54,307 nucleotides of DNA from an uncultured Thermotogaceae bacterium (GCA_964478535.1 CAYZNB010000001.1:1-54307); one strand, 5' to 3'. Positions 25,922 to 53,710 are shown, counted from the stretch's first letter. The notes: generated by a model not told the origin, from the sequence alone. Numbers and translations: made by a program.

Positions 25922-25942
25922 AAAATCAAAGGAGAAAAAAAC

Positions 25943-26614
25943 ATGACATTTAACGATATCTTTAAATCTAGTTTTTTAGAAAGAGTAGCTAGTTTTTCTG
26001 TGTTAGATACAATTATAGCACTGTTATTAGCTTTTATATTAGGTCTTTTTATATTTTTTGTATACAAAAAAACTTTCAGTGGCGTTATTTATTCATCAAA
26101 CTTTGGGATTTCACTTATTTCTATGGCGATGATTACAGCTATGATTATTTTGGCTATAAGTTCAAATGTTATATTATCCCTTGGTATGGTAGGAGCTTTA
26201 TCAATTGTACGTTTTAGAACAGCCGTAAAAGATCCTATGGATATATCATATTTATTTTGGGCTATTTCCATTGGAATTGTTGTTGGAGCCGGAATGATTC
26301 CTTTAGCTGTATTTGGAACAGTTTTAATTGGGATTGTTTTAATGGTTTTTGCAAACAAAAAATCAATAAATACTCCTTATTTGATAATTATTAACTGTAA
26401 TAATGAAGAATCAGAGAAAAACGTTTTGAATATTATTTGCAAAAATGTAAAAAAGCAAATTCTTAAATCCAAAACGGTTTCTAAAGAAGGTATAGAAATA
26501 ACTTTTGAAATAAGATTAAATCAAACGACAACAGAATTTGTTAATCAAATTTTATTAATAAATGGAGTCAGTAATGCAATACTTGTTAGCTATAATGGAG
26601 AATATTCATCATGA
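25943..26614 (+). CDS. DUF4956-like membrane protein
   Basis: 223 aa with four hydrophobic helices and 'LSIVRFRTAVKDPMDISYLFWAI'. Sits in the position usual for the VTC/DUF4956/CotH trio. Confidence 0.6.
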   Translation: MTFNDIFKSSFLERVASFSVLDTIIALLLAFILGLFIFFVYKKTFSGVIYSSNFGISLISMAMITAMIILAISSNVILSLGMVGALSIVRFRTAVKDPMDISYLFWAISIGIVVGAGMIPLAVFGTVLIGIVLMVFANKKSINTPYLIIINCNNEESEKNVLNIICKNVKKQILKSKTVSKEGIEITFEIRLNQTTTEFVNQILLINGVSNAILVSYNGEYSS

Positions 26615-37076: not shown

Positions 37077-37109
37077 AAAAAACAGGCTTTAATAAAAAGC
37101 CTGTTTTTT
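37077..37109. terminator. bidirectional rho-independent terminator abutting tRNA-Gly
   Basis: AACAGGCTTT-AATAA-AAAGCCTGTT 10-bp stem with flanking A and T runs. Confidence 0.75.
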
Positions 37110-37184
37110 TGGAGCGGAAGACGGGGCTCGAACCCGCGACCCCTTGCTTGGCAAGCAAGTGCTCTACCACTGAGCTACATCCGC
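37110..37184 (-). tRNA. tRNA-Gly (anticodon GCC), CCA encoded
   Basis: GCGGATG acceptor, GCTC..GAGC D arm, anticodon stem CTTGC/GCAAG with loop TTGCCAA, TTCGAGC T loop. Confidence 0.85.
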
Positions 37185-37189
37185 ACAAA

Positions 37190-37266
37190 TGGAGCAGGAG
37201 ATGAGACTCGAACTCACGACCTCCGCCTTACCAAGGCGGCGCTCTACCGACTGTAGCTACTCCTGC
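37190..37266 (-). tRNA. tRNA-Thr (anticodon GGU), CCA encoded
   Basis: Perfect acceptor GCAGGAG/CTCCTGC, anticodon stem CCGCC/GGCGG with loop TTGGTAA, TTCGAGT T loop. Confidence 0.85.
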
Positions 37267-37317
37267 AAAACCTTAATTATTATACTACAAAATCTTTTTA
37301 CTGTCAAGATTCAAAAT

Positions 37318-37734
37318 TTATTTTTCCTCTTTTTCTTTTACATTCAAAAGATTTATTTTAGCTGTAACAGTATTTTTTTGAACTTCAATTTCAAATCCCA
37401 ATTCGTGTATAAGCCAAATACCTCGACATCTTTCTCTTAAAGGCTCTTTGAATTCTGTACAATCTTTTTTTAATTCAAAGCCCTTTCCTTCATCTGTAAT
37501 TTGTACAATTAAAATATTATTCTCAAATAAAATTTTTAATTTCACTTTTTTTTGAAAATCAAAACAATTACCATGAGAAACTGCATTATTTAGCAGTTCT
37601 CTTATGGCAATACTTAGTAAAAATAAATGTTTTTCATTTTTTATATTACATTCTTCTTTTAAAAATTTTTCTATAAAAAGTGCAATTTTTGCTGCTTCTT
37701 CGTATGAAGAAAAAAAATCTGTTTCGAATTTCAT
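37318..37734 (-). CDS. HATPase_c-type anti-sigma-factor-like serine kinase (RsbW/SpoIIAB-like)
   Basis: 138 aa, single GHKL domain with N box 'ELLNNAVSHGN' and G1 'DEGKGF'. No HisKA domain. Confidence 0.7.
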   Translation of the reverse strand: MKFETDFFSSYEEAAKIALFIEKFLKEECNIKNEKHLFLLSIAIRELLNNAVSHGNCFDFQKKVKLKILFENNILIVQITDEGKGFELKKDCTEFKEPLRERCRGIWLIHELGFEIEVQKNTVTAKINLLNVKEKEEK

Positions 37735-37736
37735 TA

Positions 37737-38093
37737 TTATACTACAACTTTTGATATAGCACTTATTATCATATAGTCATTAAAAGGTTTTTTCAAAAAT
37801 ATATCTATTCCTAAATTTTTAGCTTCTTCTCTAATTTCTTCATCACCCATAGCACTCAACATTATTATATTAGCTTTAGGATTAATCGTTTTTATATTTT
37901 TTGAAGCTTCCATACCATCCATTATAGGCATAGTTATATCCATGAAAATAACTTCAGGATTTAATTTTTGAAATAATTCTACTGCTTCTTTTCCGTTTTT
38001 TGCATCTCCACAGACTTCATGCCCATTTTTTTCAAGAGTTTTTCTCAATAATGAATGAATTAATGGAGAATCGTCAACTATTAATATTTTCAA
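37737..38093 (-). CDS. single-domain response regulator (CheY-like receiver)
   Basis: 'ILIVDDS...DITMPIMDG...LSAM...KKPF'. The TTG start overlaps the upstream TGA (TTGA). Confidence 0.85.
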   Translation of the reverse strand: MKILIVDDSPLIHSLLRKTLEKNGHEVCGDAKNGKEAVELFQKLNPEVIFMDITMPIMDGMEASKNIKTINPKANIIMLSAMGDEEIREEAKNLGIDIFLKKPFNDYMIISAISKVVV

Positions 38094-39277
38094 TTTTGTT
38101 CAGCCTCCTCAAAACAATTTTTTATTATGATTATGCTTATATCATCTTTTATTATTTTATCTTTAATTTTATTTTTTGAAAAGTTTTCTAAAATATATTT
38201 ATTTATGTTCTCTATCAATTCATTTTCATTTTTGAAATTTTCAAATAAAATCTTTGCATGGTTTAAAAATATTTCTAAATTACATTTTAAAGAGTTGCTA
38301 AAAATTTCAAAGTTGTCAAAAAAACCGTCCGTATACATAAAAATCATATCATTTTTATTAAACATTATATTTGTATCTTCAAAAAAAACATCTTTTAAAA
38401 TTCCTGCTAAAAAACCTTTTTTGGTAAGAACTTCGAATTCATTTTGTTCACGCCTATATAATATAGGAAAAGGATGTCCAGCATTAGAAAAAGTTAACTG
38501 GTTTTTTTCAATTTTTCCAATAAATGCAGTAAAAGAAAACATTTCAGAAGAATTAAAATTACTTTCCATAAAATCATTCATTTTTTTTAAAACTTCAGAT
38601 GGTTTTTTATTTTCTTCAGCATAATTTGCAAATAAAACTTTTATCATTGAAGAAATTATTGAAGCTGTTATTCCATGGCCTGAAACATCCGCTATTATAA
38701 ACCATGTTGCTTCATTTATTTCAATACAATCGTAAAAATCTCCGCCTAATTCAAAAGATGGTATATATAAACCTTTGAAATTAACATTTTTTAATTTTTT
38801 TTGATTATTGATAATATTTTTCTGAAAAAAACTAGCAAGATGAAGTTCTCTATTTATTTTTTCATTAAAAGTCATTATTTCTTTTGTTTGCTCATAAACT
38901 TTAAGAGCATTATTGACTTTTAAAGGCAAAATAAAATCTATTTCTTCTGTTTTAAGAGGTTTTTCAAAAAAATCATGTGCTCCTAATGATAAAGCTTTTT
39001 TTATTGAATCTGTTTCATTCATCGCCGAATTAATTATGATTGGTATTAAATTGTATTTTCCATCTTTTTTAATTATTTCTAAAAATTCAAAACCGTCCAT
39101 TTCGGGCATCATTAAATCTAAAATTATTAAATCAATATCATTTTTATACAAAATTTCAAGGGCTTTTCTTCCGCCTTCAGCTTCAAATATTTTAAGGTTA
39201 GAAACAGTCTTTTTTAATATTGCAATTATAAGCTTTCTATTAAACAAAACGTCATCAACAACCATTATATTATTCAT
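38090..39277 (-). CDS. response regulator fused to PP2C/SpoIIE-type phosphatase (RsbU-like)
   Basis: Receiver 'MVVDD...DLMMPEMDG' followed by 'GGDFYD', 'IADVSGHGITAS' and 'MYTDG' PP2C motifs. Confidence 0.85.
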   Translation of the reverse strand: MNNIMVVDDVLFNRKLIIAILKKTVSNLKIFEAEGGRKALEILYKNDIDLIILDLMMPEMDGFEFLEIIKKDGKYNLIPIIINSAMNETDSIKKALSLGAHDFFEKPLKTEEIDFILPLKVNNALKVYEQTKEIMTFNEKINRELHLASFFQKNIINNQKKLKNVNFKGLYIPSFELGGDFYDCIEINEATWFIIADVSGHGITASIISSMIKVLFANYAEENKKPSEVLKKMNDFMESNFNSSEMFSFTAFIGKIEKNQLTFSNAGHPFPILYRREQNEFEVLTKKGFLAGILKDVFFEDTNIMFNKNDMIFMYTDGFFDNFEIFSNSLKCNLEIFLNHAKILFENFKNENELIENINKYILENFSKNKIKDKIIKDDISIIIIKNCFEEAEQN

Positions 39278-39288
39278 TTTAATCCCCT

Positions 39289-39747
39289 CTATTCGATTGC
39301 AAAATTAACTTCTATTATTCCAACAGAAAGAATCAATTCAATACATATAGTTTCAGCCGTGCTAAGAATTAAATACACATCTTTTCCTGTTACTATTGAT
39401 GGTGGAGTAATATCAAAATTAATTCCTAAAGAAGCAATTAAAGAACTCGCCGTTCCCGACATCATGTTTGTCAATTCTCCAAGAGCACTTCTTGCCATTT
39501 CATCTAATTCTGAAACTTCCATTCCCATCATCATCAATGAAACGATATTTTTTGCTGTTTTTTCGTCCATACTATAAGCCACATTACCTTTTATCCCATC
39601 AACTAAACCTATCATAGAAGTAACTTCTCTATCTATAACCATAATATCTTTTTTAATTATTTTTCCTTTTTTTACATCTGGAATTCCGATTTGTTCTAAT
39701 ATAGTTTTTATAGCACTTAAAAAACTGTTTAACAACTTTGCATCCAT
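39289..39747 (-). CDS. CheX/CheC-family CheY-P phosphatase-like protein, copy 3
   Basis: One 'SALGELTNMMSG...(x21)...PP' ExxN-x22-P motif. Confidence 0.7.
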   Translation of the reverse strand: MDAKLLNSFLSAIKTILEQIGIPDVKKGKIIKKDIMVIDREVTSMIGLVDGIKGNVAYSMDEKTAKNIVSLMMMGMEVSELDEMARSALGELTNMMSGTASSLIASLGINFDITPPSIVTGKDVYLILSTAETICIELILSVGIIEVNFAIE

Positions 39748-40224
39748 TTATTTATCACCTTCCACAGCTACATTAAATAAAATTTTTCCATATTCGCAAT
39801 GAGAATCTAAAGTTACGGAAGGAATTTTAGGAATAGAGATTATTACATTTTCTCCAGTGAAAATTATTGGAGGAGCTAATCTTAACCCTGCTTTTAATTC
39901 ATCATTTAATAAAGTTAACGCATCTCCACCTATTGTATTCAAAATTTCTGTCAAACAAGCAAGAACCATTCTATCCTTAATATCTTCATATTTTTCACCT
40001 GTTATATGTTCGGAAATTTTCAAAGCTACATTTTTTTCCATATCTAACAATATTCTGCCTTTAAAATTTCCCGCAAAACTTACGGAAGCTGATATTCCAT
40101 AAGATTTTAAATCTCCGTCAAAATCATAAACATCTCCAGAATTATTTATTTCAATACCGCCCATTACAAGCATCATTTCCTTAAAACTTTTTACAAAAGG
40201 AGCTGTTCTTTTTTTATCTATCAT
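39748..40224 (-). CDS. CheX/CheC-family CheY-P phosphatase-like protein, copy 2
   Basis: One 'LTEILNTIGG...(x21)...PP' motif. ATG behind AAGGAGG. Confidence 0.7.
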   Translation of the reverse strand: MIDKKRTAPFVKSFKEMMLVMGGIEINNSGDVYDFDGDLKSYGISASVSFAGNFKGRILLDMEKNVALKISEHITGEKYEDIKDRMVLACLTEILNTIGGDALTLLNDELKAGLRLAPPIIFTGENVIISIPKIPSVTLDSHCEYGKILFNVAVEGDK

Positions 40225-40238
40225 TAGGAACCTCCTTA

Positions 40239-40709
40239 TTAAATAATAATTATATTTAAAAATATTTTTAAATCATTTGCAAAGAACATTTTTGAAACGG
40301 AAGGAATGTTTTTTTTATTAATAAACGCATGATTATCCCCCTCAATTGTAAATGGTGAAGTCAAGTTAAAATGATTTTCAGTTCCAGAAAATATTATTTT
40401 TACTTTCCCTGCAATCATGTTCACAAGTTCGGATATTCCATCAGACAATTCGTCTTTAGTTAAATCTTCCGGTAGCATTCCTGTCATATAACTCATAAGA
40501 ATTCTTACACTTTCTTCTGATGTAGAAAGTGTAAAAATGTAATTGTATTCATCACCTTTTAAAAACATCACACCTGAATAATCTGCATTTTCATGTAAAT
40601 GTTCTTTTTCAGATACTAAAAGTCCTGTCATTGTTGTTAAAACATTTATAGTTGATTCTGTAAAAGCAGTATCTATAATTTTTAATTTTTTTTCAATAAT
40701 TTCACTCAT
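40239..40709 (-). CDS. CheX/CheC-family CheY-P phosphatase-like protein, copy 1
   Basis: One 'ISELVNMIAG...(x21)...P' motif. The start is set to the ATG at 40709 (MSEIIEKK), which forms an ATGA overlap with the cheY stop. Confidence 0.7.
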   Translation of the reverse strand: MSEIIEKKLKIIDTAFTESTINVLTTMTGLLVSEKEHLHENADYSGVMFLKGDEYNYIFTLSTSEESVRILMSYMTGMLPEDLTKDELSDGISELVNMIAGKVKIIFSGTENHFNLTSPFTIEGDNHAFINKKNIPSVSKMFFANDLKIFLNIIII

Positions 40710-41083
40710 AAAAATCCTTCTCCAAGACATTCTAAAATTCTTTTTTGTAATTCTTCCATAGAGAACGGTTTTATCAAATAATTTGCAGCACCTGCTTTAA
40801 TAGCTTGAACTATATTTTCTTTTTCTCCTTCAGTAGTAACCATCATGACCGGTATACCATTATACTTTTCATCTTTTTTGATAAATTTTAAAAACTCAAT
40901 ACCATTCATTCTGGGCATATTCCAGTCTAGCAATATAAGTTCAATATCTTCATAACCCTCTTCGATTTTTTCTAATCCTTCAATTCCATCAATTGCTTCT
41001 ATTGTTTCCATTTCAAGAACATCTGCTGCCTCTCTAATAATTTTTCTAACTATCGAAGAATCATCTACAACTAATATTTTCAA
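40706..41083 (-). CDS. cheY: chemotaxis response regulator CheY
   Basis: 125 aa, 'ILVVDDS...DWNMPRMNG...VTTEG...YLIKPF'. The TTG start overlaps the cheR TGA (TTGA). Confidence 0.85.
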   Translation of the reverse strand: MKILVVDDSSIVRKIIREAADVLEMETIEAIDGIEGLEKIEEGYEDIELILLDWNMPRMNGIEFLKFIKKDEKYNGIPVMMVTTEGEKENIVQAIKAGAANYLIKPFSMEELQKRILECLGEGFL

Positions 41084-41946
41084 ATAAAATCACCCCTCTC
41101 AAAATGACAATAGTAAACTCCTTTTTCAAATTCAATTTGTTTAAAATAATTCGAATAATCAGGTAAAATTTCTGAAGCTCCCACTACTAAAAAACCATTT
41201 TTATCTAAAGAATTAGATATTTTTTCTAAAATATTTTTTTTCAATTCTTTTGAAAAGTATATCAAAACATATCTGCAAAATATCAAATCAAATTTTCCCA
41301 AAGAACTGAAATCATTTAAAAGATTAAAATGAGTGAATTTGACTATATTTTTTATTTCATCATTTAATTTGAAAACTCTTCCTTCTTTTTCAAAATATTT
41401 TTCTAAATATTTTTTATCTAAACCCCTCATTACAGATATAGCGTTATATCGACCTTCTTTAGCTATATTTAAAACTTCTTTAGATATATCTGTACCTATT
41501 ATTTCAAAATTTTCTAATGTAACGTCTTTTATATTGTTTTTTATTAAATATTCGTTTATACAAATAGAAGTTGAATAAGCTTCTTGTCCTGTTGATGATG
41601 CCGCAGACCATATTCTGAATTTTTTGATTTTTTGATCTCTAACACTTTCAATTGCTTCAGGTAAAATATTTTTTTCTAAAAAAATCCAAGGTTTTATATC
41701 TCTGAACCATTGAGTTTCATTAGTTGTAATGGCATCTATTATTTTTTCTTTAAGCTTTTCATCTTTACTCATATTGATCTTTTTATAAAATTGTTCAAAA
41801 TCATCACAATCATATTCTACTAATAATCTTGCAAGTCTGCTTTCAATAAGGTATTGTTTTTCTTCATTTAAACTTATTCCACATAATTCTTCTATAAATT
41901 TTTGTATCTTAATGATCGTATTATTTTCACCCATTAAAATCACCAC
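41080..41946 (-). CDS. cheR: chemotaxis protein methyltransferase CheR
   Basis: 'TNETQWFRD' and SAM-binding 'RIWSAASSTGQEAYS'. The ATG at 41934 (MGENN) is an alternative to the GTG at 41946. Confidence 0.9.
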   Translation of the reverse strand: MVILMGENNTIIKIQKFIEELCGISLNEEKQYLIESRLARLLVEYDCDDFEQFYKKINMSKDEKLKEKIIDAITTNETQWFRDIKPWIFLEKNILPEAIESVRDQKIKKFRIWSAASSTGQEAYSTSICINEYLIKNNIKDVTLENFEIIGTDISKEVLNIAKEGRYNAISVMRGLDKKYLEKYFEKEGRVFKLNDEIKNIVKFTHFNLLNDFSSLGKFDLIFCRYVLIYFSKELKKNILEKISNSLDKNGFLVVGASEILPDYSNYFKQIEFEKGVYYCHFERGDFI

Positions 41947-43015
41947 TTATTATTTTAGATATTCTGTTACCTATTATTTCAATATCAAGTGATTCATCTG
42001 AAAAACCAGCTTTTTCAACTCTCATAGGCATACCATAAACTACACAACTCTTTTCATTTTGAGTTATGCAATAACATTTTAAATTTTCTTTTAAATGTTT
42101 AATACCCTTTTCACCATCATTTCCCATACCAGTTAAAATTACCGCTAAAATATTAGTGTTTTTATCATAAACATTTGTCAATGATTTAAATAAAACATCT
42201 GCTGAAGGTTTCACATTAATAATAGGATCGTCATTTTTATATTTAGCAATTATTTTATTTTCAATTTTTTCTAAATAAAGGTGTTTTCCACCAGCAGCAA
42301 TATAAATTTTTCCTTCACATATTTCTTCATTTTCTTGAACTTCAACAAAATTCATTTTTGTCTTGCTTTTTAACGATTGAGCTAATATTTGAGTAAATTT
42401 TTCAGGCATATGTTGAGTGATTATAATAGGTGTTTTAATACTTTTATTCAATTTAATAAAAAGTTTATCTAAAGCAGATGGACCACCAGTTGATGAAGCT
42501 ATTAAAATAATCTTTGGTGTTGAAATAATTGTTTTTTCTTTTTTTTGAATTTTTTCAGATATAATTTCCATTTTCTTTTCTTTTTCAAATTCAATTTCAG
42601 ATATTTTCTTTACTTTAATTTGATTAAAAATAGAGTTTAGCTTATTTCTTATAAAAAGCATATTTCTTTCTAAATTATCTGAATTAGGCTTCAATATAAA
42701 ATCAAAAGCACCATTTTCTAAAGCTTCTACAGTCATTCTTGCTGTATTGTCATCACCAGAAGATATCAATACTACTTCTATTTCAGGATATTTTTCTTTT
42801 ATTATTTTAAGAGTTTCAACTCCTGTTAAACCTGGCATAAATATATCCATCAAAACAACATCAAAGTCGTTTGAATTTTGAATTTTTTCTAATGCGTTAA
42901 AACCGTTTGAAGCAAAATTATTAGTTTTAGCGTTAGATGTTTTATTTATTGCGTCAGTTAATATTTTTCTGTATATAAGAGAATCGTCAACTACTAAAAC
43001 ATTTAGCTTTTCCAT
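41927..43015 (-). CDS. cheB: chemotaxis response regulator protein-glutamate methylesterase CheB
   Basis: Receiver 'VLVVDDS...DIFMPGLTG' plus esterase 'ASSTGGPSAL', 'TQHMP' and 'LTGMGNDG'. Confidence 0.9.
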   Translation of the reverse strand: MEKLNVLVVDDSLIYRKILTDAINKTSNAKTNNFASNGFNALEKIQNSNDFDVVLMDIFMPGLTGVETLKIIKEKYPEIEVVLISSGDDNTARMTVEALENGAFDFILKPNSDNLERNMLFIRNKLNSIFNQIKVKKISEIEFEKEKKMEIISEKIQKKEKTIISTPKIILIASSTGGPSALDKLFIKLNKSIKTPIIITQHMPEKFTQILAQSLKSKTKMNFVEVQENEEICEGKIYIAAGGKHLYLEKIENKIIAKYKNDDPIINVKPSADVLFKSLTNVYDKNTNILAVILTGMGNDGEKGIKHLKENLKCYCITQNEKSCVVYGMPMRVEKAGFSDESLDIEIIGNRISKIISGDFNG

Positions 43016-43056
43016 ATATTAACCTCTCTTAATTATTGACTTGAATTAGAAGTGAT

Positions 43057-44421
43057 TTAATATTTAAATTGTTTAAGAAGTGTATTAAGTTTTTCAGAAA
43101 CTTCTCCAGCATTTATAGACGTTTCGTTTGTTTTTTGTGCTCCGCTTGATACTTCTGTTGATACCCCAGTTATTTCGGTCATGCTTTGCGATATGTTGTT
43201 TGCTCCTGCATTTATTTCTCCAACCGCTCTCACTATATCGTTAACTTGTTTTGATACAGATTCTATATTTGTTGATACTTCATTAGACGCATTCGATAAT
43301 TCTCCTGATGATCTTGCTATTTCTTTTACTCCTTTTGATGTTTCGTTCAAACTCCTCGTTACTTCTTCTGCATTTTTAGATATTGTAACTACTTCTTTTG
43401 TTATTGAGCTTACCATTTCAGCTGCTTCTACCATACTGTCAGATATTTGTTCTGTTACTGATGTCTGTTCTGTTACTGCCGAAGCTATTATTCCCGCTAT
43501 ATCTGTTACTTCTCCAACTACTTCTTTTACAGATTTCATAGCATTTATTGCCTGTGACATGTTATTTTTCATATCATCAATTTGTAAACTTATTTCTTCT
43601 GTTGCTTCGCTCGTTTGTTTTGCTAATTCTTTTACTTCATTCGCTACTACTGCAAATCCTTTTCCCGCTTCTCCTGCTCCTGCGGCTTCTATCGCTGCGT
43701 TTAATGCCAACATGTTTGTTTGATCTGCTATATCATTTATTACTTCTACTATTTTCCCTATTTTCTTTGATGATTCATTTAATTTTTCCATCACTGTATT
43801 TGTTTCATCTGTTCTCATTTTTGCTTCATCTGTTATGTTTATCGATCTTTCTGTATTTTTACTTATTTCTCCAAGTGATATGTTTATTTCTTTTATTGAT
43901 GTCGATACTGAATTTACAGATTTTGATACTTTATTAGATGAATTTTCAGTTACCTTTATACTTTGAGATACTTCTTCCATTGATTTTTCTATATTTACCA
44001 ATCCTACTGATGTTTCTTCCGCTGCTGCCGCAAGATTTTTTATTGTCGATGTCATTTCTTCTACTGCGGATGATATGCTAGTTACATTTTGTCCTGTTGT
44101 TCCTAGCGATTCATTCGTATCTTCTATATTTGTAGATATTTCAGTTATTGCTGAACTTACTTCTTCTGTTTTTGCCGCAAGTTCTTCACTACTTGATGAA
44201 AGATTTGTAGATACATCCATCATTTCAGATGAAGATTTGTTCATAGTTTCTGATAATTCTCCTATATTTTTCATCGATCCTTTCAATGAATTTGCCATTT
44301 CATTCAATGATCTAGCCATTTCTCCTATTTCATCTTTCTTCTTTGATTTAAATTCTACTGTTAAATCTCCTGTTCCAAATTTCTTTATTTCTCCTTGCAT
44401 CTTCTTTAATGGCTTTGTTAT
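43057..44421. repeat. near-identical 1.37-kb duplicated segment, copy A (HAMP + signalling domain of MCP)
   Basis: Matches 45068-46432 at an offset of 2011 bp. Only three mismatches were found by eye: 43058, 44349 and 44372. Confidence 0.9.
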
Positions 44422-45042
44422 ACCGTTAATAAGAGGAATTGCTATTAACAATGTTATTAATCCTCCTATAACTGCTATTGCAATTAAAACTAACGTTATT
44501 CTGAAAATTTCTCCTCCCAGATTTTCAAGAACCTCTCCAGCTTCAGAATATGCAATTTCATAATATCTATCTCTTATTAAAGATAAATATTTTTGTGTTT
44601 CTCTCAAAGCAAGTAATGTTTGATTTTCATAAATATCTATTGCATTAGTATAATCACCTACATTTGTTAATTGTATAATAGCAGATGCTGATTCATGTAA
44701 TTTTACATGAGGCTCTTTTATATCTTCTAAAAAAGATAATAATTCTACATCTGTAATTTGAGAGGCTTCTTCTCCGTAAATCCATGTTCCTAAAGAACAT
44801 TTAGTAAAATCTAATTGACCTTCAAATTTTGTTTTCATATAAACATGATTTCCTAAATTTTGTGAATAAACAAGATGTGCATTTTCAATATTTGCAATAT
44901 TTAAATTAACGTTTAAATTTTCTTCAACTAAAAATGTATATCCTCCTATTACATCTAAATAATAATAAGTAATACCTAATATAAAAGTTATTAAGATCAA
45001 GAAAAAAATAATTAAAAATATTAATTTAGACTTTATTTTTAT
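43057..45042 (-). CDS. methyl-accepting chemotaxis protein with extracytoplasmic CZB-motif sensor (probable ATA start)
   Basis: TM1, ~150-aa sensor, TM2, HAMP and MCP signalling domain ('[28 protein letters not shown]'). The ORF track starts at the TTG at 45000, which has no SD. The frame is open to 45060, and the ATA at 45042, 6 nt after GGGGGG, would give [10 protein letters not shown]..., parallel to the [10 protein letters not shown]... of the neighbouring MCP. Confidence 0.85.
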
Positions 45043-45067
45043 ACAAATCCCCCCTTTTACTTAATGA

Positions 45068-46432
45068 TCAATATTTAAATTGTTTAAGAAGTGTATTAAG
45101 TTTTTCAGAAACTTCTCCAGCATTTATAGACGTTTCGTTTGTTTTTTGTGCTCCGCTTGATACTTCTGTTGATACCCCAGTTATTTCGGTCATGCTTTGC
45201 GATATGTTGTTTGCTCCTGCATTTATTTCTCCAACCGCTCTCACTATATCGTTAACTTGTTTTGATACAGATTCTATATTTGTTGATACTTCATTAGACG
45301 CATTCGATAATTCTCCTGATGATCTTGCTATTTCTTTTACTCCTTTTGATGTTTCGTTCAAACTCCTCGTTACTTCTTCTGCATTTTTAGATATTGTAAC
45401 TACTTCTTTTGTTATTGAGCTTACCATTTCAGCTGCTTCTACCATACTGTCAGATATTTGTTCTGTTACTGATGTCTGTTCTGTTACTGCCGAAGCTATT
45501 ATTCCCGCTATATCTGTTACTTCTCCAACTACTTCTTTTACAGATTTCATAGCATTTATTGCCTGTGACATGTTATTTTTCATATCATCAATTTGTAAAC
45601 TTATTTCTTCTGTTGCTTCGCTCGTTTGTTTTGCTAATTCTTTTACTTCATTCGCTACTACTGCAAATCCTTTTCCCGCTTCTCCTGCTCCTGCGGCTTC
45701 TATCGCTGCGTTTAATGCCAACATGTTTGTTTGATCTGCTATATCATTTATTACTTCTACTATTTTCCCTATTTTCTTTGATGATTCATTTAATTTTTCC
45801 ATCACTGTATTTGTTTCATCTGTTCTCATTTTTGCTTCATCTGTTATGTTTATCGATCTTTCTGTATTTTTACTTATTTCTCCAAGTGATATGTTTATTT
45901 CTTTTATTGATGTCGATACTGAATTTACAGATTTTGATACTTTATTAGATGAATTTTCAGTTACCTTTATACTTTGAGATACTTCTTCCATTGATTTTTC
46001 TATATTTACCAATCCTACTGATGTTTCTTCCGCTGCTGCCGCAAGATTTTTTATTGTCGATGTCATTTCTTCTACTGCGGATGATATGCTAGTTACATTT
46101 TGTCCTGTTGTTCCTAGCGATTCATTCGTATCTTCTATATTTGTAGATATTTCAGTTATTGCTGAACTTACTTCTTCTGTTTTTGCCGCAAGTTCTTCAC
46201 TACTTGATGAAAGATTTGTAGATACATCCATCATTTCAGATGAAGATTTGTTCATAGTTTCTGATAATTCTCCTATATTTTTCATCGATCCTTTCAATGA
46301 ATTTGCCATTTCATTCAATGATCTAGCCATTTCTCCTATTTCATCTTTCTTCTTTGATTCAAATTCTACTGTTAAATCTCCTTTTCCAAATTTCTTTATT
46401 TCTCCTTGCATCTTCTTTAATGGCTTTGTTAT
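45068..46432. repeat. near-identical 1.37-kb duplicated segment, copy B
   Basis: See copy A. Translations are identical in the coding frame and in two antisense frames. Confidence 0.9.
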
Positions 46433-47434
46433 GCTAAATATTGTAGGTATTGCGATTATTATACCAATTACTACAGCTATTACAAGACCAACTATCAATA
46501 TAATAATTGCAGTTGCAAGCTCATCGTTTAATTCTTGTCCTTCACGTATTGTTTGATTAGATATATAATTAGCAAACGCTTCTGCTGTTGCAAGAACTTG
46601 TGTTTGCCCTACTTCTGTTCTTAAAGAATCAACTTCATCGAGTCTTGTTCTAAGTTGCACATATCTATTAACTTCATTTCTATATGCAATTGCAGAACTT
46701 AATATATTCTCTAATCTTTGAATGTTTATTTCTAATCTTGTATCAGCTAATAATTCTTTTGCATAATCTTCAATAAGATCAAAGTTTTCAATAACTCTTT
46801 CTAAATATGCTATATTATTGTTAGCTCTTGCTGATGTGACACCTAAATTTATTTCATTTCCTAAATCTAAAAGATAGTTTGAAAGAGTTAATCTGTTAAT
46901 TCTTCTTATTAATTCTTCTTCAGTTTGATTATCTTTCACATCGTTTTCTAAATTTTGCGTCATAATTTCTACAAATTCAACTGCGTTTTTTATGTATATA
47001 TCAAATTGTTGTTCTAAACTTCTATTAACTATTCTTAAGTTATTTATAAGATCAGTTGTTTCAATCATTAATTTTTCGTATTCAATAACCCCTTTTTCAG
47101 CTTCTTCAACAGTTTTTACAAAATCTGATAAATTGTTGTCATTTCCGAATTTCTTCGCTTCATTTATATAATTTTTCAAACTTTTTAACTCGCTTTCAGC
47201 TAAAACATAAAAATTATCGTTTTCTCTAAAAGAATATCCTCTCATTTCATACATTAGTCCATATACTTCTCTTTCTATACTTGTAGAATAATTCATTTCA
47301 ACAATATTTATATCGGTCATATCAGTCACAGACTCTTGTGCTGTCATCATATTAAAAATAGCTAATACGCCAAGTATTCCCATTATTATAAGGATTACAA
47401 CAAATCCAAGTGATATTTTTGCTGATATTTTCAT
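45068..47434 (-). CDS. methyl-accepting chemotaxis protein with ~290-aa helical extracytoplasmic sensor
   Basis: TM1, a long helical ligand-binding region, TM2, then HAMP and a signalling domain identical to that of the neighbouring MCP. Confidence 0.9.
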
Positions 47435-47446
47435 GTTTTCTCCCCC

Positions 47447-47908
47447 TTAATTGATTTTGTTATTTTGATCTAACAAAAAATGTTCTGGATTAAAAATTGT
47501 TTCTGGGTCTAAAACGATAAGTATATTTTCTTCAATTTTTGCAATTAGTTTTATAAACTTATCTTCAATTCCTTTTATGTTAGCTGGCGGAGATTCTGTT
47601 ATTTCTTCATCAATTTCAAGAACATCTCCGGTTTTATCTATTAAAAATCCTACAGTATTTATAATTTTAGAAGTCATTTTTAAAGTTATACACGTATTTT
47701 TAGTATATGTTTTTTCTTCAAATCCTAATATTTTATTTAAATCAAATACTGTTACTATTTGTCCTCTCATATTAAATAAGCCTTTAATATGGTCGTTTGA
47801 ATCTGGTACTTTTGTATAATCTATATTTCTATTCAATTCTTTTACAATGTTTATATCAACTCCATAAAGTTCTTCATTCAAATAAAAAGTCAATACCTTT
47901 GAGGTCAT
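47447..47908 (-). CDS. cheW: chemotaxis coupling protein CheW
   Basis: 153 aa single CheW domain ('LTFYLNEELYGVDI...RGQIVTVFDL'). ATGA overlap with the cheA stop. Confidence 0.9.
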   Translation of the reverse strand: MTSKVLTFYLNEELYGVDINIVKELNRNIDYTKVPDSNDHIKGLFNMRGQIVTVFDLNKILGFEEKTYTKNTCITLKMTSKIINTVGFLIDKTGDVLEIDEEITESPPANIKGIEDKFIKLIAKIEENILIVLDPETIFNPEHFLLDQNNKIN

Positions 47909-50900
47909 GATTGCACCACCTCTTTTTCAAATATTTCTTTTAACAGAGTTAGAAGTCTTTCTTTATCTATTTTTGTTTCATAATAATTGAATCCTGATTT
48001 TAAAACAGAATTTTTAATTTTATCTCCAGTCATGCTTGTAACTGCTATTGCTGGAATATGTTTAAATTCTTTTTGTGAGCGTACCCATCTTATAAATTCT
48101 TCTCCTGTCATTTCAGGCATAACTATATCACTTACTATTGCATCTATGTTTTTAACTTTTTTCAACATTTCTACGCCCTCTTTACCATTTTTTACCCAAT
48201 GAACTTTGTAATTTGCATTTTCTAAATAATTTTTTTCAAGCTTTAAGAAAAATTCAGTGTCTTCAAGAAGTAATATATTTTTTTGTTCTTTAGATTTTAA
48301 ATTTTTATCATCTTCATATAACTCTGGTACTGCCGTTTCAAAAAGCTCAAAACTGTTAAGAATTAAAACTATTTTTTTATTTATTATTGTTGTGCCTAAT
48401 ATTCCTTTAGATTTTATCACTTTTTTACTTTCGTCGTTTAATTGAAGTTTTGTTTCATGAGTATCTATTATTTTATGTATAAGTATACCAAGAGGATGTT
48501 TTGAAAATTTGGGTATTATAACATAAAGCTTTTCTGGAAGATTGTTGTTTTTTTCTATTGGAAGATGATCTTCTGGTCTTATTATTCTATATTCTGTATT
48601 TCTGTATTGAATATATTCATTTCCTCCAATTTTTTCTATATCATTTTTGTTAATAACTTCTACTCTTGAAACCATAGATAAATCTATTGCAAGCATTTCA
48701 TTTCCAGAGCATTTGAAAAGCATAAAATTTTGTGATTCTTGTACTGCATATTGAGAATGCTTTTTTTCAGCATCTGTTTTTTCAATCATGTCTTCTACAT
48801 ATTTAAGATTTGCTTTTTTTGATATGCCTTCAGCATCAAGTATCATTGCTATTTTACCGTCTCCCATTATAGTAACACCTGAATAAGCTATAGAGTTTCT
48901 CAAATATATTGATAAAGGTTTAACTAAAATTTCTTCTGTTTCGTGAATTTTATCTACCATTATTCCATATTTTTTTGTACCAACTTTTACTACAAGTATT
49001 CTTTTTACATTCTCTTTTTTTGTTTCTAATTTTTGGATTTTTAACACATCAGATAAATCAACAATTGGTAGCAAATTACCTCTCAAACGCAACACTTTAG
49101 CATTACCTATATGTTCTATTTTATTTTTATCGTTTTCTTTTAGTCTATAAATTTCTTGAAGATTTACTTGAGGTAAAGCAAATTTATTTCCCCCTATTTC
49201 AATTATCAATGAGGAAATTATTGCAAGGGTTAAAGGAACCATAAGCCTGAATGTTGTGCCAGAACCAATTTCTGTTTTTATATCTATGCTTCCGCCAAGT
49301 TTTTCTATATTCGTCTTAACAACATCCATTCCTACTCCTCGACCTGAAACATCTGTTACTTTCTCTGCAGTAGAAAATCCGGGTTCAAATATCAGTGAAA
49401 GTATATCTTTTTCAGAAAGTTTTTCTAATGATTCTTTTTTTATTAATTTATTAGATAAGGCTTTTTTCTTTATTTTTTCTGGATCAATTCCTGTTCCGTT
49501 GTCTTTTATTTCTATGTTAACTCTACCGCCTTCATGATAAGCTTTTAGAGTTATTTTTCCTTTTTTTGCTTTTCCATTTTTTTCTCTAACATCAGGTTTT
49601 TCTATCCCGTGATCAACTGCATTTCTTATTAAATGTGTTAAGGGATCTGTTAAAGCTTCTATTATAGATTTATCTAATTCAACTTCAGTACCATGCATTT
49701 CAAGCTCGATTTCTTTTCCTAATTTTCGTGTCATTTCCCTTATTATTCGTGGAAATTTGTTAAATATTTTCGAAACGGGTTGCATTCTTGTATTCATTAT
49801 TTTTCCTTGAAGTTCTGTTGTGGTGAGGTCTATGTTTTGAAGAATAGGTTCGAGGCCTTCTATCTTTTTTCTTTGAAATTCGAGCGTTCTTAATAATTGA
49901 TTTCTTCCCAAAACCATTTCACTTGCAAGATCAAGAAGACTGTTTAAAAGCGAAACGTTTACTCTTACTGTTTCGTCAGGAGATATTTTATTAACTCGCT
50001 GTTCTTTATTAGGGGGTTCTTCTAAATTGTTATCCTCTTCAACATCTTCTTCTATTATTTCATTTTTTTCAAAATTTGATTCAGTTTCTTGATTTTTAAG
50101 TATTTTATCATTTTTATCATTATTTTTTTCTAATGATTCATCCATAAGAATTTCTTTTACTTCTCCAACTTTTAAATTCACGTCGAGTTTTATAATTCTA
50201 TGAGGTTCTATTTGTAAAGCTAGAGATACTAACTCTTCATCTAAAACTGTTGAAAAAATAAATATATAATTAATTTCAGCTTCTTCTATATTTTTTAACC
50301 CGGTTACTTCGCTTATATCAGTATACGCATCTATAACCAAACCTATAGATTCTATTTTCTTAAAATAAACTACAGGATTTAAATTTTTTGATTCGACATC
50401 TTCTTTTAATTTCAACTTTATTTTATATATATTATGACCATGACTTAAAGCGTATTTAACTGTAACTTTTTGTTCTTTGTCTATATTTAAAGATTCTTTT
50501 TCGGGAGTTATTAACTCTAGTTTTTCTTTGCTTTCAATTCCTTTTTTTTCGTTTTTTTCAATTATTTCTTTAACTTTTTTAACTGTATTATCTATATTTA
50601 CATTTTCGCTTTCAGAAATATTAAAAACCATTTTTTTTAATAAATCTAAAGACTCAAGTGTAACATCTATTATTTTAGGGTCTACTTTAATTTCAGATCT
50701 TCTTATTATTCCAAAAAGATTTTCAATACTATGAGCACAATTAACCAATTTTTTCAGCCCAAAAAAACCGGCTGTTCCTTTTATACTATGGACAGATCTG
50801 AATATAGAGTTAATTAAATTAGCATTTTCGGGAGATTTTTCTAATTTTAATAAAGCTTCTTCGATGGATTCTAAATGGGTTGTAGCTTCATCTACAAACT

Positions 50901-50934
50901 CCTGAATGTAATCTTCATTTGACAAAATTTCCAC
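47905..50934 (-). CDS. cheA: hybrid chemotaxis histidine kinase CheA (Hpt, dimerisation, HATPase, two CheW-like domains, C-terminal receiver)
   Basis: 'FRSVHSIKGTAGFFG' Hpt, 'HLIRNAVDHGIE' N box, 'DNGTGID' and 'GRGVGMDVV' G boxes, two CheW-like segments, then 'ILLLEDT...DIVMPEMTG...VTSM'. The start is ambiguous: GTG at 50934 or TTG at 50925. Confidence 0.9.
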   Translation of the reverse strand: MEILSNEDYIQEFVDEATTHLESIEEALLKLEKSPENANLINSIFRSVHSIKGTAGFFGLKKLVNCAHSIENLFGIIRRSEIKVDPKIIDVTLESLDLLKKMVFNISESENVNIDNTVKKVKEIIEKNEKKGIESKEKLELITPEKESLNIDKEQKVTVKYALSHGHNIYKIKLKLKEDVESKNLNPVVYFKKIESIGLVIDAYTDISEVTGLKNIEEAEINYIFIFSTVLDEELVSLALQIEPHRIIKLDVNLKVGEVKEILMDESLEKNNDKNDKILKNQETESNFEKNEIIEEDVEEDNNLEEPPNKEQRVNKISPDETVRVNVSLLNSLLDLASEMVLGRNQLLRTLEFQRKKIEGLEPILQNIDLTTTELQGKIMNTRMQPVSKIFNKFPRIIREMTRKLGKEIELEMHGTEVELDKSIIEALTDPLTHLIRNAVDHGIEKPDVREKNGKAKKGKITLKAYHEGGRVNIEIKDNGTGIDPEKIKKKALSNKLIKKESLEKLSEKDILSLIFEPGFSTAEKVTDVSGRGVGMDVVKTNIEKLGGSIDIKTEIGSGTTFRLMVPLTLAIISSLIIEIGGNKFALPQVNLQEIYRLKENDKNKIEHIGNAKVLRLRGNLLPIVDLSDVLKIQKLETKKENVKRILVVKVGTKKYGIMVDKIHETEEILVKPLSIYLRNSIAYSGVTIMGDGKIAMILDAEGISKKANLKYVEDMIEKTDAEKKHSQYAVQESQNFMLFKCSGNEMLAIDLSMVSRVEVINKNDIEKIGGNEYIQYRNTEYRIIRPEDHLPIEKNNNLPEKLYVIIPKFSKHPLGILIHKIIDTHETKLQLNDESKKVIKSKGILGTTIINKKIVLILNSFELFETAVPELYEDDKNLKSKEQKNILLLEDTEFFLKLEKNYLENANYKVHWVKNGKEGVEMLKKVKNIDAIVSDIVMPEMTGEEFIRWVRSQKEFKHIPAIAVTSMTGDKIKNSVLKSGFNYYETKIDKERLLTLLKEIFEKEVVQS

Positions 50935-50946
50935 CGCCTTTTTAGT

Positions 50947-51249
50947 TTATTCAATAGAAAATTTTTCATTCAATCTCATTAAAGCGAATAAATCTTTAAT
51001 ATCTTCATTTGTGTTAATAAGTTTGAATTCTTTATTTTGTTTGGAAACAATTTTATACATAGCTACTATAAAAGTAATTCCTACAGAATCTATATAACTT
51101 ACATCTTTTATATCTAAAATTATAGTTTCAAATTTTTCAATTTCTTCAATAAAATTTTGAGCCTTATCATTAATTTCTCGAACTTTCGAGGCAATAAGAT
51201 TTTGTTCCACTATTAAAATCATTGATTTTTCTACTATTTTCTTTTCCAT
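50947..51249 (-). CDS. STAS-domain anti-sigma-factor antagonist (RsbV/SpoIIAA-like)
   Basis: 'ILDIKDVSYIDSVGITFIV' contains the conserved phosphorylatable Ser context. The start is set to the ATG at 51249, 8 nt after AGGAG. Confidence 0.75.
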   Translation of the reverse strand: MEKKIVEKSMILIVEQNLIASKVREINDKAQNFIEEIEKFETIILDIKDVSYIDSVGITFIVAMYKIVSKQNKEFKLINTNEDIKDLFALMRLNEKFSIE

Positions 51250-51351
51250 AATGAATTCTCCTTTAATATTTTTTTTAAAAAACATATCATTTATTAATAT
51301 AATCTTTATGAAAATTATACTATATTTTTTATAAAAAATAAAGTGTATTTT

Positions 51352-52659
51352 TTAGGTTAAATTCTCTATTAAAATTTTTATCAAATCATTTCTTTTATAA
51401 GGTTTTGTTAAATATCCGGAAAATCCTTTTTCAAAAGCTAACTTTGCTTCTTTTTGCCCTGTTATTGATGTAAATAAAACCAAAGGAATATTTTTTGTTT
51501 TTTCTATCTGTTTTAAAGTAGTAGCTAGATCAATACCGTCCATTTCAGGCATTTCATAATCTATTAAAATCAAATCATATGAAAATTTTTCATTTTTCAT
51601 TATTAAACTTAAAGCTTGACTGGCCTTTTCAGCAGTATCAATAATAACTCCCACTTCTTCTAAATATATTTTTGCGATTTTAGTGTTTAAAACATTATCA
51701 TCTACAATTAGAATACTTTTATTTTTTAAAATATTATAATCTAAAATTATATTTGTTTTTTCTCCACTATGTTTTTTTAAAGTAAGCGTAAAATAAAAAG
51801 TTGTTCCATAACCTTTTTTACTTTCAACCCATATTTTTCCTTTCATCATTTCTACTATTCTTTTACATATTGAAAGACCCAATCCTGTTCCGCCATATTT
51901 TCTTACTGTTGATGAATCTTCTTGCGTAAATGGATCAAAAATTTTTTTCAGAGTTTCTGAATTCATGCCTACACCAGTATCTTCAACTTTAAATAATAAT
52001 TCTAATTTGTTTTTGTAATCTCTTTTTTTACTTACTTCAACAAAGATATGTCCTTTTTCTGTAAATTTAACTGCATTATTTAAAAGATTATTTAAAATTT
52101 GCTTTAATCTATCACTATCCCCTATTAAATTTTGCGAGACATTTGATTCTACTAAAATATTTAATTCTATATTTTTATTATTTGCATTGACTGTAAAAGG
52201 TATTGCTGCCTCCTCTATTTTTTCTATCAAATCAAATTCATGTTCGTCAAGTAAAAATTTACCAGATTCTATTTTTGATATATCTAAAATATCATTTATA
52301 GTATTCATAAGTTTATCGGTAGATAATTTTATATATTTAACATATTCTTTTTGTTCTTCATCTAATTGAGTTGATGCAAGAAGGTTTATAAAACCTGTTA
52401 TTCCATTCATAGGCGTTCTTATTTCATGACTCATATTAGCCAAAAATTGACTCTTGGCTATGTTTGCAACTTCTGCTTTTATCGTCAACTCTTTTTCTTT
52501 TTTTAGCATTTTTTTGATTTTTTTGTGCGTTTCTTTCAATTCTAAATTATTTTTTATTAAAGCTCTTTGTGCTGTAACTAATTCATTGTTCAATTGAGTT
52601 ATTTTATTAAATAACTCATTGTCGTCATTTTTTAATTTTTGATTTTTATTTTCTTCCAT
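51352..52659 (-). CDS. soluble hybrid sensor histidine kinase / response regulator
   Basis: Coiled-coil N-terminus, H box '[14 protein letters not shown]', N box '[12 protein letters not shown]', G box 'GGTGLGLSI', C-terminal receiver 'ILIVDDN...DYEMPEMDG'. No TM segment and no recognisable sensor domain. Confidence 0.9.
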
Positions 52660-52672
52660 TTTAAAATTCCTT

Positions 52673-53710
52673 TCATATATTCAATAATTTTTTAACAACC
52701 TCAACAGTATTCAAAGCGTCTTTTGAATATCCATCTGCTTTTAAGGTTTTCCACAAATTTTGATCTACGTTGAAAGGATATCCGCCAACCATAATTTTAA
52801 TATGTTTTGTGGATTCATTTATTTTTATTTCATTAATTATTTTTGAGGCTTCTTCTATGTGTTCTGTCATAGTCGCAGAAAGCATTAAAATATTTGCTTT
52901 TTTTTGTTTTATAGATTTCATTATATCTTTTAGAGGCATATTTGCACCTAAATAATAAACATTAAATCCCTCAAGTTCTAAAAAATCACTTACAATTCTT
53001 ATTCCAATTTCATGTAATTCGTGGCTTACACTTGCTGCTATTATAGTATAATTATTTTTTATCGTATTTAAAACATAATTATATAATTGTGACATAATCA
53101 TCTGTGTTGAAGCCGTAACATAATGTTCTTGAGCTACATTTATTTTATTTTCTTGCCACATTTTTCCAACTTCTATTTGAGTTGCTTGAAAAATTTCCAA
53201 GTATATTTCTTTTATATCTTTTCCTTTTTCAATATATTTCATTATTAAATTAGAAGCTTCCCCCTTATTTCCATCCAATAAAAAGTTCAAATATTTTTGA
53301 GCTTCATTTGTAAGAGTAATATCTGAATTTTTTAAATCTTTTTCTTTTTTTACTTCCTCTAAAGCAGACTTTAAAAATACTTCTATAATTTTAAATTCAT
53401 CTTTTGAAAAGTGTTTTTTCAGTATAAAAGTTACACATTCTAAATTTTCTATAAGCTCTTGTGAAGATATATTGAGATTATCTAGAAGAATTTTAGCCCA
53501 ACTAATGTAATCTATAAATAGTTTAATGCTTGAAAATTTAATAGTTTCAGCGAGGTGAGTTAAAGTATGCTTTATATCTCTTTTGCAAATATTAATTTGA
53601 TATGAGGTATATTTTTTTTCCAAACTGGGATTTATAGAAAATTGCTTTTCTAATATTTCTTGAACTAACACATCCATATTTTTCATTATATAATCAAATA
53701 TACCGCTCAT
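52673..53710 (-). CDS. standalone CarH-like cobalamin-binding protein with N-terminal helical extension
   Basis: '[20 protein letters not shown]' (Wx9EH) followed by '[35 protein letters not shown]' (ExHxxG) and 'IMVGGYPF'. The start is set to the ATG at 53710, 5 nt after GGGAGG. The stop lies 13 nt from the hybrid kinase start. Confidence 0.75.

Follow-up and report, generated by a model that had tools for sequence, protein, structure and literature searches.

A 54,307-nt stretch of an uncultured Thermotogaceae bacterium (GCA_964478535.1 CAYZNB010000001.1:1-54307; hereafter the window, to whose full length all coordinates refer) carries on its minus strand, from 53710 to 37318, an array of 16 genes that is a predicted single signalling operon. 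The array joins three modules: a B12-type sensor with a sensorless hybrid histidine kinase; a chemoreceptor array with an adaptation set; and a partner-switching module, comprising a STAS antagonist, a receiver-controlled PP2C phosphatase (REC-PP2C) and a small GHKL protein. In the reading that we favour, with a probability of roughly 55%, the P1 domain of CheA, and possibly also the B12-linked hybrid kinase, would act through REC-PP2C on the phosphorylation of STAS, which would set the partner choice of the GHKL protein, the third partner being encoded at an unlinked site.

As we envisage this circuit, receptor-controlled CheA would autophosphorylate on its P1/Hpt domain and pass phosphoryl groups to CheB, to both CheY-like proteins and to the receiver of REC-PP2C; the hybrid kinase may be a further donor to these receivers, possibly via CheA-P1, and the three CheX phosphatases would reset them. 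The phosphorylation state of REC-PP2C would set its phosphatase activity on phospho-STAS, and the GHKL protein would re-phosphorylate STAS. Unphosphorylated STAS would bind the GHKL protein and thereby displace the third partner. We infer every phosphotransfer step, and the existence of that partner, from domains, catalytic motifs and a conserved gene order that can be read directly. Besides domain content, the tight packing of the genes and published precedents, it speaks for the wiring that the catalytic and acceptor residues are in place (CheA His49, the His of the hybrid kinase, Asp and Lys in six receivers, the STAS Ser, the Asp motifs of PP2C, and the N-box and G1 box of the GHKL protein) and that the interleaving of switch genes with che genes is conserved.

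Layout of the array and its partner-switching proteins

Pfam was searched with all 16 open reading frames (ORFs) of the array, and gene calls on related contigs agree with the start codons chosen. The ORFs are co-oriented and tightly packed, in a window that is strongly AT-rich (G+C ~27%), and Pfam agrees with every domain call, so the gene list and order given by the original prediction hold throughout. Che genes come between the genes of the partner switch: the STAS gene lies 5' of cheA, and the genes for REC-PP2C, the CheY-like single receiver REC118 and the GHKL protein stand at the 3' end.

The best start of the B12-protein gene is ATG 53710, preceded by GGGAGG (the longest ORF reaches 53776 and would encode 367 aa), and that of the STAS gene is ATG 51249, preceded by AAAGGAG (longest ORF from 51285). 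These starts, supported by ribosome-binding sites, agree with the array end at 53710 and with the 102-nt gap between the hybrid-kinase and STAS genes that had been described before. With such starts the junctions range from a 4-nt overlap to 102 nt, and longest-ORF starts would give overlaps of 20-25 nt at CheB/CheR and CheY/CheX1. The ATGA or TTGA overlaps that had been noticed are present at four junctions, namely CheA/CheW, CheR/CheY, CheY/CheX1 and, as TTGA, REC-PP2C/REC118.

Just past the stop codon of the GHKL gene, a block at 37077..37307 on the same strand contains the two tRNA genes and the terminator that had been reported to follow the array: tRNA-Thr(GGT) at 37266-37190, tRNA-Gly(GCC) at 37184-37110 and a terminator-like hairpin at 37109-37077. 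The tRNA genes have their own sigma-70 promoter with a 12/12 consensus match (TTGACA-17-TATAAT, 37307-37279) and, lying with it directly 3' of the last gene, mark the 3' boundary of the array. Promoter-like matches are at background (128 observed, 107 expected for this composition) because the region is so AT-rich, and do not delimit transcription units. No plausible terminator was found inside the array, the sole other match being a weak 5-bp stem within cheX3, and an Rfam scan returned no riboswitch, its matches being four tRNAs only.

The STAS antagonist (100 aa, 50947..51249; Pfam STAS, 46.5 bits), whose gene ends 12 nt before cheA, can be aligned with TM1442, RsbV and SpoIIAA. It has the conserved Ser of the DS motif, the residue that is phosphorylated in these three proteins, within VSYIDSVG where TM1442 and RsbV read VSYMDS[AT]G; the predicted phosphorylation site is Ser54 (Ser66 in the longest ORF). 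The protein belongs to a distinct subfamily with the motif NIDSVGVTF. REC-PP2C (395 aa, 38090..39277; Pfam Response_reg and SpoIIE, 126 bits) is separated from the upstream CheX genes by just 11 nt. It retains the receiver Asp and Lys and, as a phosphatase of the SpoIIE family, the metal-binding Asp residues: GGD, ADVSGHG, YTDG and DD are invariant or nearly so in two homologue alignments.

The GHKL protein (138 aa, 37318..37734) has the size of SpoIIAB and RsbW and is the putative STAS kinase and switch protein. It scores 43.7 bits against Pfam HATPase_c_2 (cut-off 27.4), and 18-26 bits against the NCBIfam RsbW and SpoIIAB equivalogs, whose cut-offs are 135-155. Its N-box reads ELLNNAVSHG and its G1 box DEGKG, and it has R-E-R-C-R-G where RsbW and SpoIIAB read GG.G or SGMG. 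The pattern is that of a subfamily to which it belongs (LRE[VI]LNNAVEHGN ... DEGxG ... RxRxRG), in which the Asn pair of the N-box and the DEGxG of the G1 box are invariant and an equally invariant R-x-R-x-RG stands in place of the G2-box GxG. With a nine-member subfamily profile, SpoIIAB and RsbW come out as the closest PDB entries, at E ~5e-5 and in register across the whole domain. Because the equivalog scores stay under their cut-offs and the subfamily profile fits SpoIIAB and RsbW best, we consider the protein a remote member of the anti-sigma/serine-kinase GHKL group. An exhaustive profile-free search with it returned 1228 cluster representatives at E<=0.001, most of them 130-145 aa long; about 20 of the top 150 measure 181-300 aa, and one has 541 aa. 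The earlier interpretation of these three proteins as a partner switch stands, with the GHKL protein as its weak point.

The chemosensory core and the B12-binding protein

The chemosensory core is complete, with CheA (P1 His, P3, P4 and P5), CheW, MCP (methyl-accepting chemotaxis protein), CheB, CheR and CheY. CheA-REC (1009 aa, 47905..50934) is built of P1/Hpt, P3, P4, P5, a second CheW-like stretch and a C-terminal receiver. Its phospho-His motif HxxKG reads HSIKG, with the His at residue 49, and its P1 is the only Hpt in the operon. It aligns with the E. coli and T. maritima CheA structures (E 1e-100 and 3e-87, respectively) and is 45% identical over its full length to the CheA-REC of a Bacillota contig, L089. 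CheW (153 aa, 47447..47908) and CheR (CheR_N and CheR domains, 284 aa from ATG 41934; 41080..41934) were assigned by Pfam, as was the methylesterase CheB (41927..43015), which combines REC with CheB_methylest and has a GMGNDG motif. The original prediction counted five receiver domains in the array; there are six, and all keep the acidic pocket, the phospho-acceptor Asp, the Thr/Ser and the Lys.

By Pfam and a scan for transmembrane segments, MCP1 (788 aa, 45068..47434) has two such segments, a periplasmic helical domain of ~280 aa, HAMP and a signalling domain of ~407 aa, with the hairpin tip at about residue 585 between arms of about 204 and 203 residues. By its length of 407 aa the signalling domain corresponds to ~58 heptads, and it overshoots the 44-heptad TM1143 at both ends; a literature search for '58H' receptors gave nothing usable. 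MCP2 (647 aa, 43057..45000) consists of CZB, a transmembrane segment, HAMP and an MCPsignal domain identical to the one in MCP1, its TTG start being uncertain. The two receptors share 429 identical C-terminal residues, encoded by ~1.29 kb of near-identical DNA (43057-44348 and 45068-46359), and differ in their sensor halves, which suggests that a duplication or gene conversion took place recently. In metagenomes, contigs from the same organism (L001, L003, L004 and L154-L156) break inside or just after this repeat, as expected where a repeat is real. The CZB domain, a zinc-binding domain usually described at the cytoplasmic C-terminus, here occupies residues 42-109 of MCP2 and precedes the single strong transmembrane segment; given the TTG start, the N-terminal topology is uncertain.

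The two CheY-type proteins have different closest relatives. CheY125 (125 aa, 40706..41083; Pfam REC) is closest to proteobacterial-type CheY: its best PDB matches are the CheY of H. pylori and E. coli (E 2.5e-29), and it scores 103.8 bits against NCBIfam CheY, under the cut-off. REC118 (118 aa, 37737..38093) is of the Thermotoga/archaeal type, with the CheY of P. horikoshii and T. maritima as best PDB matches (E 5e-27). The three CheX proteins, CheX1 (156 aa, 40239..40709; Pfam CheX), CheX2 (158 aa, 39748..40224; Pfam CheX) and CheX3 (152 aa, 39289..39747; Pfam CheX and CheC), all keep an E-x2-N ... P motif (E-x2-N-x22-P in CheX2), which we take to be the active-site motif of CheC and CheX. 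Of these proteins CheX3 most resembles T. maritima CheX, with which it aligns over residues 1-126 (1SQU and 1XKO, E 2e-23).

Compared with the motility system of T. maritima, the window has a CheA-REC fusion, the proteobacterial-like CheY125 and a longer receptor signalling domain; what it shares with that system is REC118 and CheX3, and these Thermotoga-like proteins make a motility output of the Che core possible. The CheA-REC fusion and the enzymatic response-regulator output are no more than suggestive of the alternative cellular functions (ACF) class.

The first gene of the array encodes a predicted soluble sensor with B12-binding_2 and B12-binding domains (345 aa, 52673..53710), in which a helical N-terminal domain is followed by what appears to be a CarH-type B12 module. 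In the numbering of the 367-aa ORF it has Wx9EH at residue 207 and ExHxxG at residue 253, and Wx9EH and [DE]xHxxG are kept in 120/120 retrieved homologues. Wx9EH is the signature of the CarH photoreceptor. The published light-response signature of B12 modules consists of GxxW, EH, GxxH and GxxxP (PMC11796333); the window protein reads GKMW, EH, HELH and GANMP, and the consensus of the homologue alignment at the third element is GELH. Its AlphaFold2 model (predicted local distance difference test, pLDDT, 93) has as best Foldseek matches the light-sensing B12 domains of CtMerR (8jbs), photocobilins (8j2w) and CarH (5c8d), with an rmsd of 1.9 A over 204 columns against 8j2w.

The protein shares with the CarH, CtMerR and photocobilin modules the four-helix bundle and Rossmann B12 module, Wx9EH, the His-ligand motif and three of the four signature elements (GxxW, EH and GxxxP). 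It differs from the CarH type in having no MerR DNA-binding domain, in its helical, phycobilisome-like N-terminal domain, and in its apparent partner, the hybrid kinase. It is a member of a widespread family of ~350-aa proteins, many of which match phycobilisome proteins (globin fold) significantly in their N-terminal domain; for the window protein this match is sub-threshold. The family resembles photocobilins in domain content, in the opposite domain order. We found no description of this family in the literature searched, and nothing usable on Wx9EH combined with a histidine kinase. From motifs and model, we regard the protein as a probable B12/light sensor, the candidate signals being light, cobalamin availability or redox state.

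The adjoining hybrid kinase (HisKA-HATPase-REC, 435 aa, 51352..52659) has its H-box SHEIRTP at residue 77 and the receiver Asp, and possesses neither a sensor domain nor an Hpt. Since the B12 protein and this kinase have no transmembrane segments, they look like a cytoplasmic sensor/transmitter pair. A comparable arrangement is seen in Paenibacillus (L153), where a homologue of the B12 protein adjoins a sensorless HisKA-HATPase-REC-Hpt kinase; in Fervidobacterium (L151) another homologue overlaps a GGDEF gene. Elsewhere in the window, overlapping genes at 4158-6671 encode another, small B12-binding-domain protein (217 aa) and, after it, an FtsX-type permease and an ABC ATPase.

Related loci and alternative wirings

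Gene order around the switch is conserved in related loci. In L150, whose REC-PP2C is 55% identical to that of the window, the order CheB-CheR-CheY-CheX-CheX-CheX-REC-PP2C-REC-GHKL is kept, and REC118 is 82% identical to its counterpart there. In the Bacillota contig L089 and in a Proteocatella metagenome-assembled genome (MAG; L008), a GHKL-STAS fusion lies directly upstream of cheA-REC and is followed, after cheA-REC, by CheW, MCP, CheB, CheR, CheY, CheX, REC-PP2C and a 104-aa Hpt, with proteins 37-53% identical to those of the window. The placement of STAS upstream of cheA and of PP2C at the 3' end is therefore conserved across two phyla.

The switch also occurs by itself. When the full REC-PP2C alignment was used as a query in genome scans, generic receiver matches dominated and only two loci were of use, but the PP2C part alone worked on metagenomes and retrieved ~30 loci with a compact GHKL-STAS-REC-PP2C trio and no che genes nearby. 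The GHKL and STAS proteins of these loci fall into the same distinct subfamilies as those of the window. The trio is a distinct and widespread module: in most cases it occurs on its own, in some its parts are fused into one protein, and in others Hpt, CheY and CheX are its only company. Its three parts appear tied together by Rosetta-stone fusions: STAS, GHKL, REC and PP2C in one 685-aa protein (P0061), GHKL-REC-PP2C (P0064 and L127) and GHKL-STAS (L089). A compact six-gene locus on the metagenome contig L127 (2114-6366) encodes a GHKL-REC-PP2C fusion, STAS, a 270-aa Hpt protein resembling the N-terminus of CheA, a CheY that is 59% identical to REC118, and two CheX related to CheX2 (32% identity) and CheX3, without MCP, CheW, CheB, CheR or a CheA kinase core. 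From this content, an Hpt to receiver to CheX circuit belongs to the switch itself, and in the window only CheA-P1 could play the part of the Hpt. The trio of L130 has, 58 nt upstream of it, the gene of an orthodox PAS-GAF histidine kinase that shares 52% identity with the core of the window's hybrid kinase.

In a rough neighbour-joining tree of REC-PP2C homologues, built without support values, che-linked copies fall into at least two groups. The closest named relatives of the window's REC-PP2C are from Clostridia (~40% identity), which fits a possible lateral exchange of the cluster. A Clostridiales MAG lineage (L087, L088 and L102) has a REC-PP2C, 42% identical to that of the window, preceded solely by an orphan CheB gene; this pair, which may be what is left of a che-linked cluster, is surrounded by genes of amino-acid biosynthesis.

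The route from CheA and/or the hybrid kinase through REC-PP2C to STAS, as put forward in the original prediction, thus gains support from the gene order conserved in L150 and in L089 and L008, from the fusions and from the L130 kinase, the phosphotransfer along it being what we infer. Several points weigh against it. The che-less trios mean that REC-PP2C needs no CheA in general, and the position of the L130 kinase makes the window's hybrid kinase a plausible donor to REC-PP2C as well; it, rather than CheA, may be the cognate one. A stand-alone Hpt that could serve the hybrid kinase is missing from the operon. All that ordinary flagellar chemotaxis requires is likewise encoded there. With the usual GxG missing from its G2 box and scores under the RsbW and SpoIIAB cut-offs, the GHKL protein is not assured of kinase activity.

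Part of this evidence can be read another way. The main alternative, which we consider rather unlikely, is that two systems sit side by side: the Che core would serve ordinary flagellar chemotaxis, the switch would be driven only by the B12-linked hybrid kinase, and their co-location would reflect co-transfer or co-expression. The trio is, after all, normally found without che genes, an orthologue of the hybrid-kinase core lies next to it in L130, the B12 protein and hybrid kinase form an independent pair in L153, and the Che set is complete, with two CheY-type proteins of which one resembles T. maritima CheY. However, the switch genes are interleaved with the che genes rather than appended as a block, STAS or GHKL-STAS stands immediately 5' of cheA in two phyla, and REC-PP2C is bound to its neighbours by a start/stop overlap with REC118 and by the 11-nt gap to the CheX genes. 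The hybrid kinase, moreover, would find its only Hpt in CheA-P1, and CheA-REC and the ~58-heptad MCPs differ from the 44-heptad motility receptors of T. maritima.

We give little credence to a self-contained loop, in which the GHKL protein or STAS would act back on a component of the operon (by sequestering REC118, or by binding CheA or the receptors) and the switch would tune or re-route the chemosensory output. It is equally improbable, in our judgement, that within such a loop the B12/light and chemoreceptor inputs would jointly decide which of the two CheY is free. If true, a target inside the operon would mean that what the partner switch gates is a chemotaxis pathway rather than a sigma factor. 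The loop would explain why ~64 kb of sequence holds no target, and it accords with the conserved adjacency of STAS and cheA and with the position of the REC118 gene between those of REC-PP2C and the GHKL protein, repeated in L150, and with the REC118-like copy that travels with the switch in L127; an effect of STAS on chemoreceptors has been proposed from gene neighbourhoods in Campylobacterota (PMC9239204). Yet L089 and L008 carry an Hpt where REC118 would be, the stand-alone trios have no che partner and so must act on something else, and no direct evidence was found for binding of GHKL or STAS proteins to operon products. It is just as doubtful that the GHKL protein is a pseudo-kinase or ATP-dependent binder, with STAS regulated by binding alone or by another kinase in an atypical switch. 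The invariant R-x-R-x-RG in place of the G2 GxG and the remote resemblance to SpoIIAB and RsbW (profile E ~5e-5, under the NCBIfam cut-offs) would suit such a role, but the subfamily keeps both Asn of the N-box and the DEGxG of the G1 box without exception, fusions of GHKL with STAS and with REC-PP2C are known, and the STAS Ser and the catalytic Asp residues of PP2C are co-conserved in the same loci, which makes sense only if a phospho-cycle runs. The CheA-linked switch with an unlinked third partner remains our preferred reading.

Genomic surroundings and comparison with known systems

The host is a Petrotogaceae-like member of the Thermotogota, as judged from its LepA, which is 79-80% identical to those of Tepiditoga spiralis and a Thermotogota MAG and 66-74% identical to those of other Petrotogaceae/Thermotogae. 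The original prediction saw no target for the switch, and our searches agree: Pfam scans found no sigma factor, anti-sigma factor, FlgM-like or flagellar gene in the window, and three related contigs, followed for 10 kb beyond where the window stops, hold no sigma factor, FlgM-like or flagellar gene either (~64 kb in total). On these three metagenome contigs (L154-L156) a DUF4301 gene stands 87 nt upstream of the B12-protein gene. They share the block DUF4301-B12-HK-STAS-CheA and differ upstream of it (1-8500), where they carry sugar/NeuB genes, miscellaneous enzymes or an IS21 IstB fragment, so that a strain-variable junction lies beside the array. Recurrent neighbours of 31 trio loci (a 776-aa cell-wall-type protein, RNase PH, RdgB and a metallophosphoesterase) were considered as targets and rejected, because they track the synteny of one lineage and not function.

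In a speculative variant, a diguanylate cyclase would be under the control of phospho-STAS, for which HsbA-HsbD and SiaC-SiaD are precedents; by analogy, a GGDEF protein with five transmembrane segments (33069-34754) would be a candidate. Its gene is found on the strand opposite to the array, 2.5 kb downstream.

Other parts of the window contain several further gene groups. A plus-strand run at 11199-19993, which may be a biosynthetic or modification cluster, encodes a 234-aa protein of no known function, a GH3-family adenylating enzyme, four tandem paralogous B12-binding radical-SAM proteins of ~444 aa each, and a 368-aa protein, likewise of no known function. A VTC-domain protein, DUF4956 and a CotH kinase-family protein follow one another at 25226-28365, with an OmpR-type two-component system encoded upstream in the opposite orientation (22907-24815). 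Where G+C is lowest in the window (~21%), a gene at 9338-10876 encodes a 512-aa protein that consists almost wholly of leucine-rich repeats.

To our knowledge, neither Thermotogota nor Bacillota have RpoS. On this general knowledge of its distribution, RpoS, a known target of such switches, cannot be the target in this lineage or the third partner of the switch, and the controlled process must differ. Further features that are new here are the phyla themselves; the split layout, in which a CheY-like gene stands between those of the phosphatase and the putative kinase; the number of CheX, which is three; a distinct GHKL/STAS subfamily with an altered G2 box; and the B12-sensor/hybrid-kinase pair upstream. 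Wiring of Che to a partner switch, known from Proteobacteria, is thereby extended to Thermotogota and Bacillota, and a compact recurrent module is defined, made of a SpoIIAB-like protein with an unusual G2 box, STAS and REC-PP2C, often with Hpt, CheY and CheX. The probable B12/light sensor beside it offers a concrete case in which chemoreceptor and cofactor/light signals may merge into one serine-phosphorylation switch.

The coupling itself is not new, and its novelty had been overrated, since che clusters with STAS and a serine phosphatase are already described (PMC7184735, PMC9855816) and the same logic is known from F7 clusters, Shewanella Che1 and HptB-HsbR-HsbA. A serine phosphatase and anti-sigma-factor-antagonist genes are part of the gammaproteobacterial che clusters of F7 'stage 1' and 'stage 2' (Ortega et al., PMC7184735), and the che1 locus of S. 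oneidensis encodes CrsR (REC-PP2C-kinase) and CrsA (STAS), which control RpoS availability (PMC9855816, PMC6482189). Like the window, these clusters (V. cholerae cluster III and S. oneidensis Che1) link che genes to STAS and a serine phosphatase; they have a non-motility output, and the target is encoded elsewhere (RpoS in Shewanella). The window belongs to another phylum and departs from the F7 pattern in having no CheD and no PAS/heme Aer2-like receptor, in its receptor signalling domain of ~58 heptads, in its CheA-REC fusion, three CheX and gene order, in the B12-sensor/hybrid-kinase pair upstream, and in its distinct GHKL and STAS subfamilies. CrsR and HsbR are single tri-domain REC-PP2C-kinase proteins, whereas REC-PP2C and the GHKL protein of the window are encoded by separate genes with a CheY-like gene between them.

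In P. aeruginosa HptB-HsbR-HsbA, hybrid kinases act through an Hpt on a receiver-controlled PP2C and then on STAS, whose phosphorylation decides the bound partner (PMC6482189). That system has no chemoreceptor array, and its targets FlgM, HsbD and RpoS are known; of its hybrid-kinase/Hpt feed, the window has the hybrid kinase, with CheA-P1 as the only Hpt, and stand-alone Hpt genes are present in L089, L008 and L127. B. subtilis RsbU/RsbV/RsbW and SpoIIE/SpoIIAA/SpoIIAB share with the window a PP2C, a STAS with a conserved Ser and a ~140-aa GHKL protein, but the window has no linked sigma gene, a receiver-regulated phosphatase and a degenerate G2 box. The Wsp system of P. aeruginosa, with WspR as its REC-GGDEF, has in common with the window MCP, CheW, CheA-REC, CheB, CheR and an enzymatic response-regulator output; in the window, however, the output enzyme is a PP2C predicted to act on STAS and not a diguanylate cyclase, and CheY and CheX are also present.

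For some chemosensory classes of Campylobacterota, the published gene orders include STAS and histidine-kinase genes, and P. aeruginosa SiaABCD is a STAS switch that targets a diguanylate cyclase (PMC9239204). SiaABCD has a PP2C, a STAS kinase and a STAS, as is predicted for the window, and because its target is not a sigma factor, the target of the window's switch need not be one either. The two differ in that SiaA is a membrane sensor phosphatase rather than a response regulator, and in that the diguanylate cyclase target of SiaABCD is encoded in the same operon.

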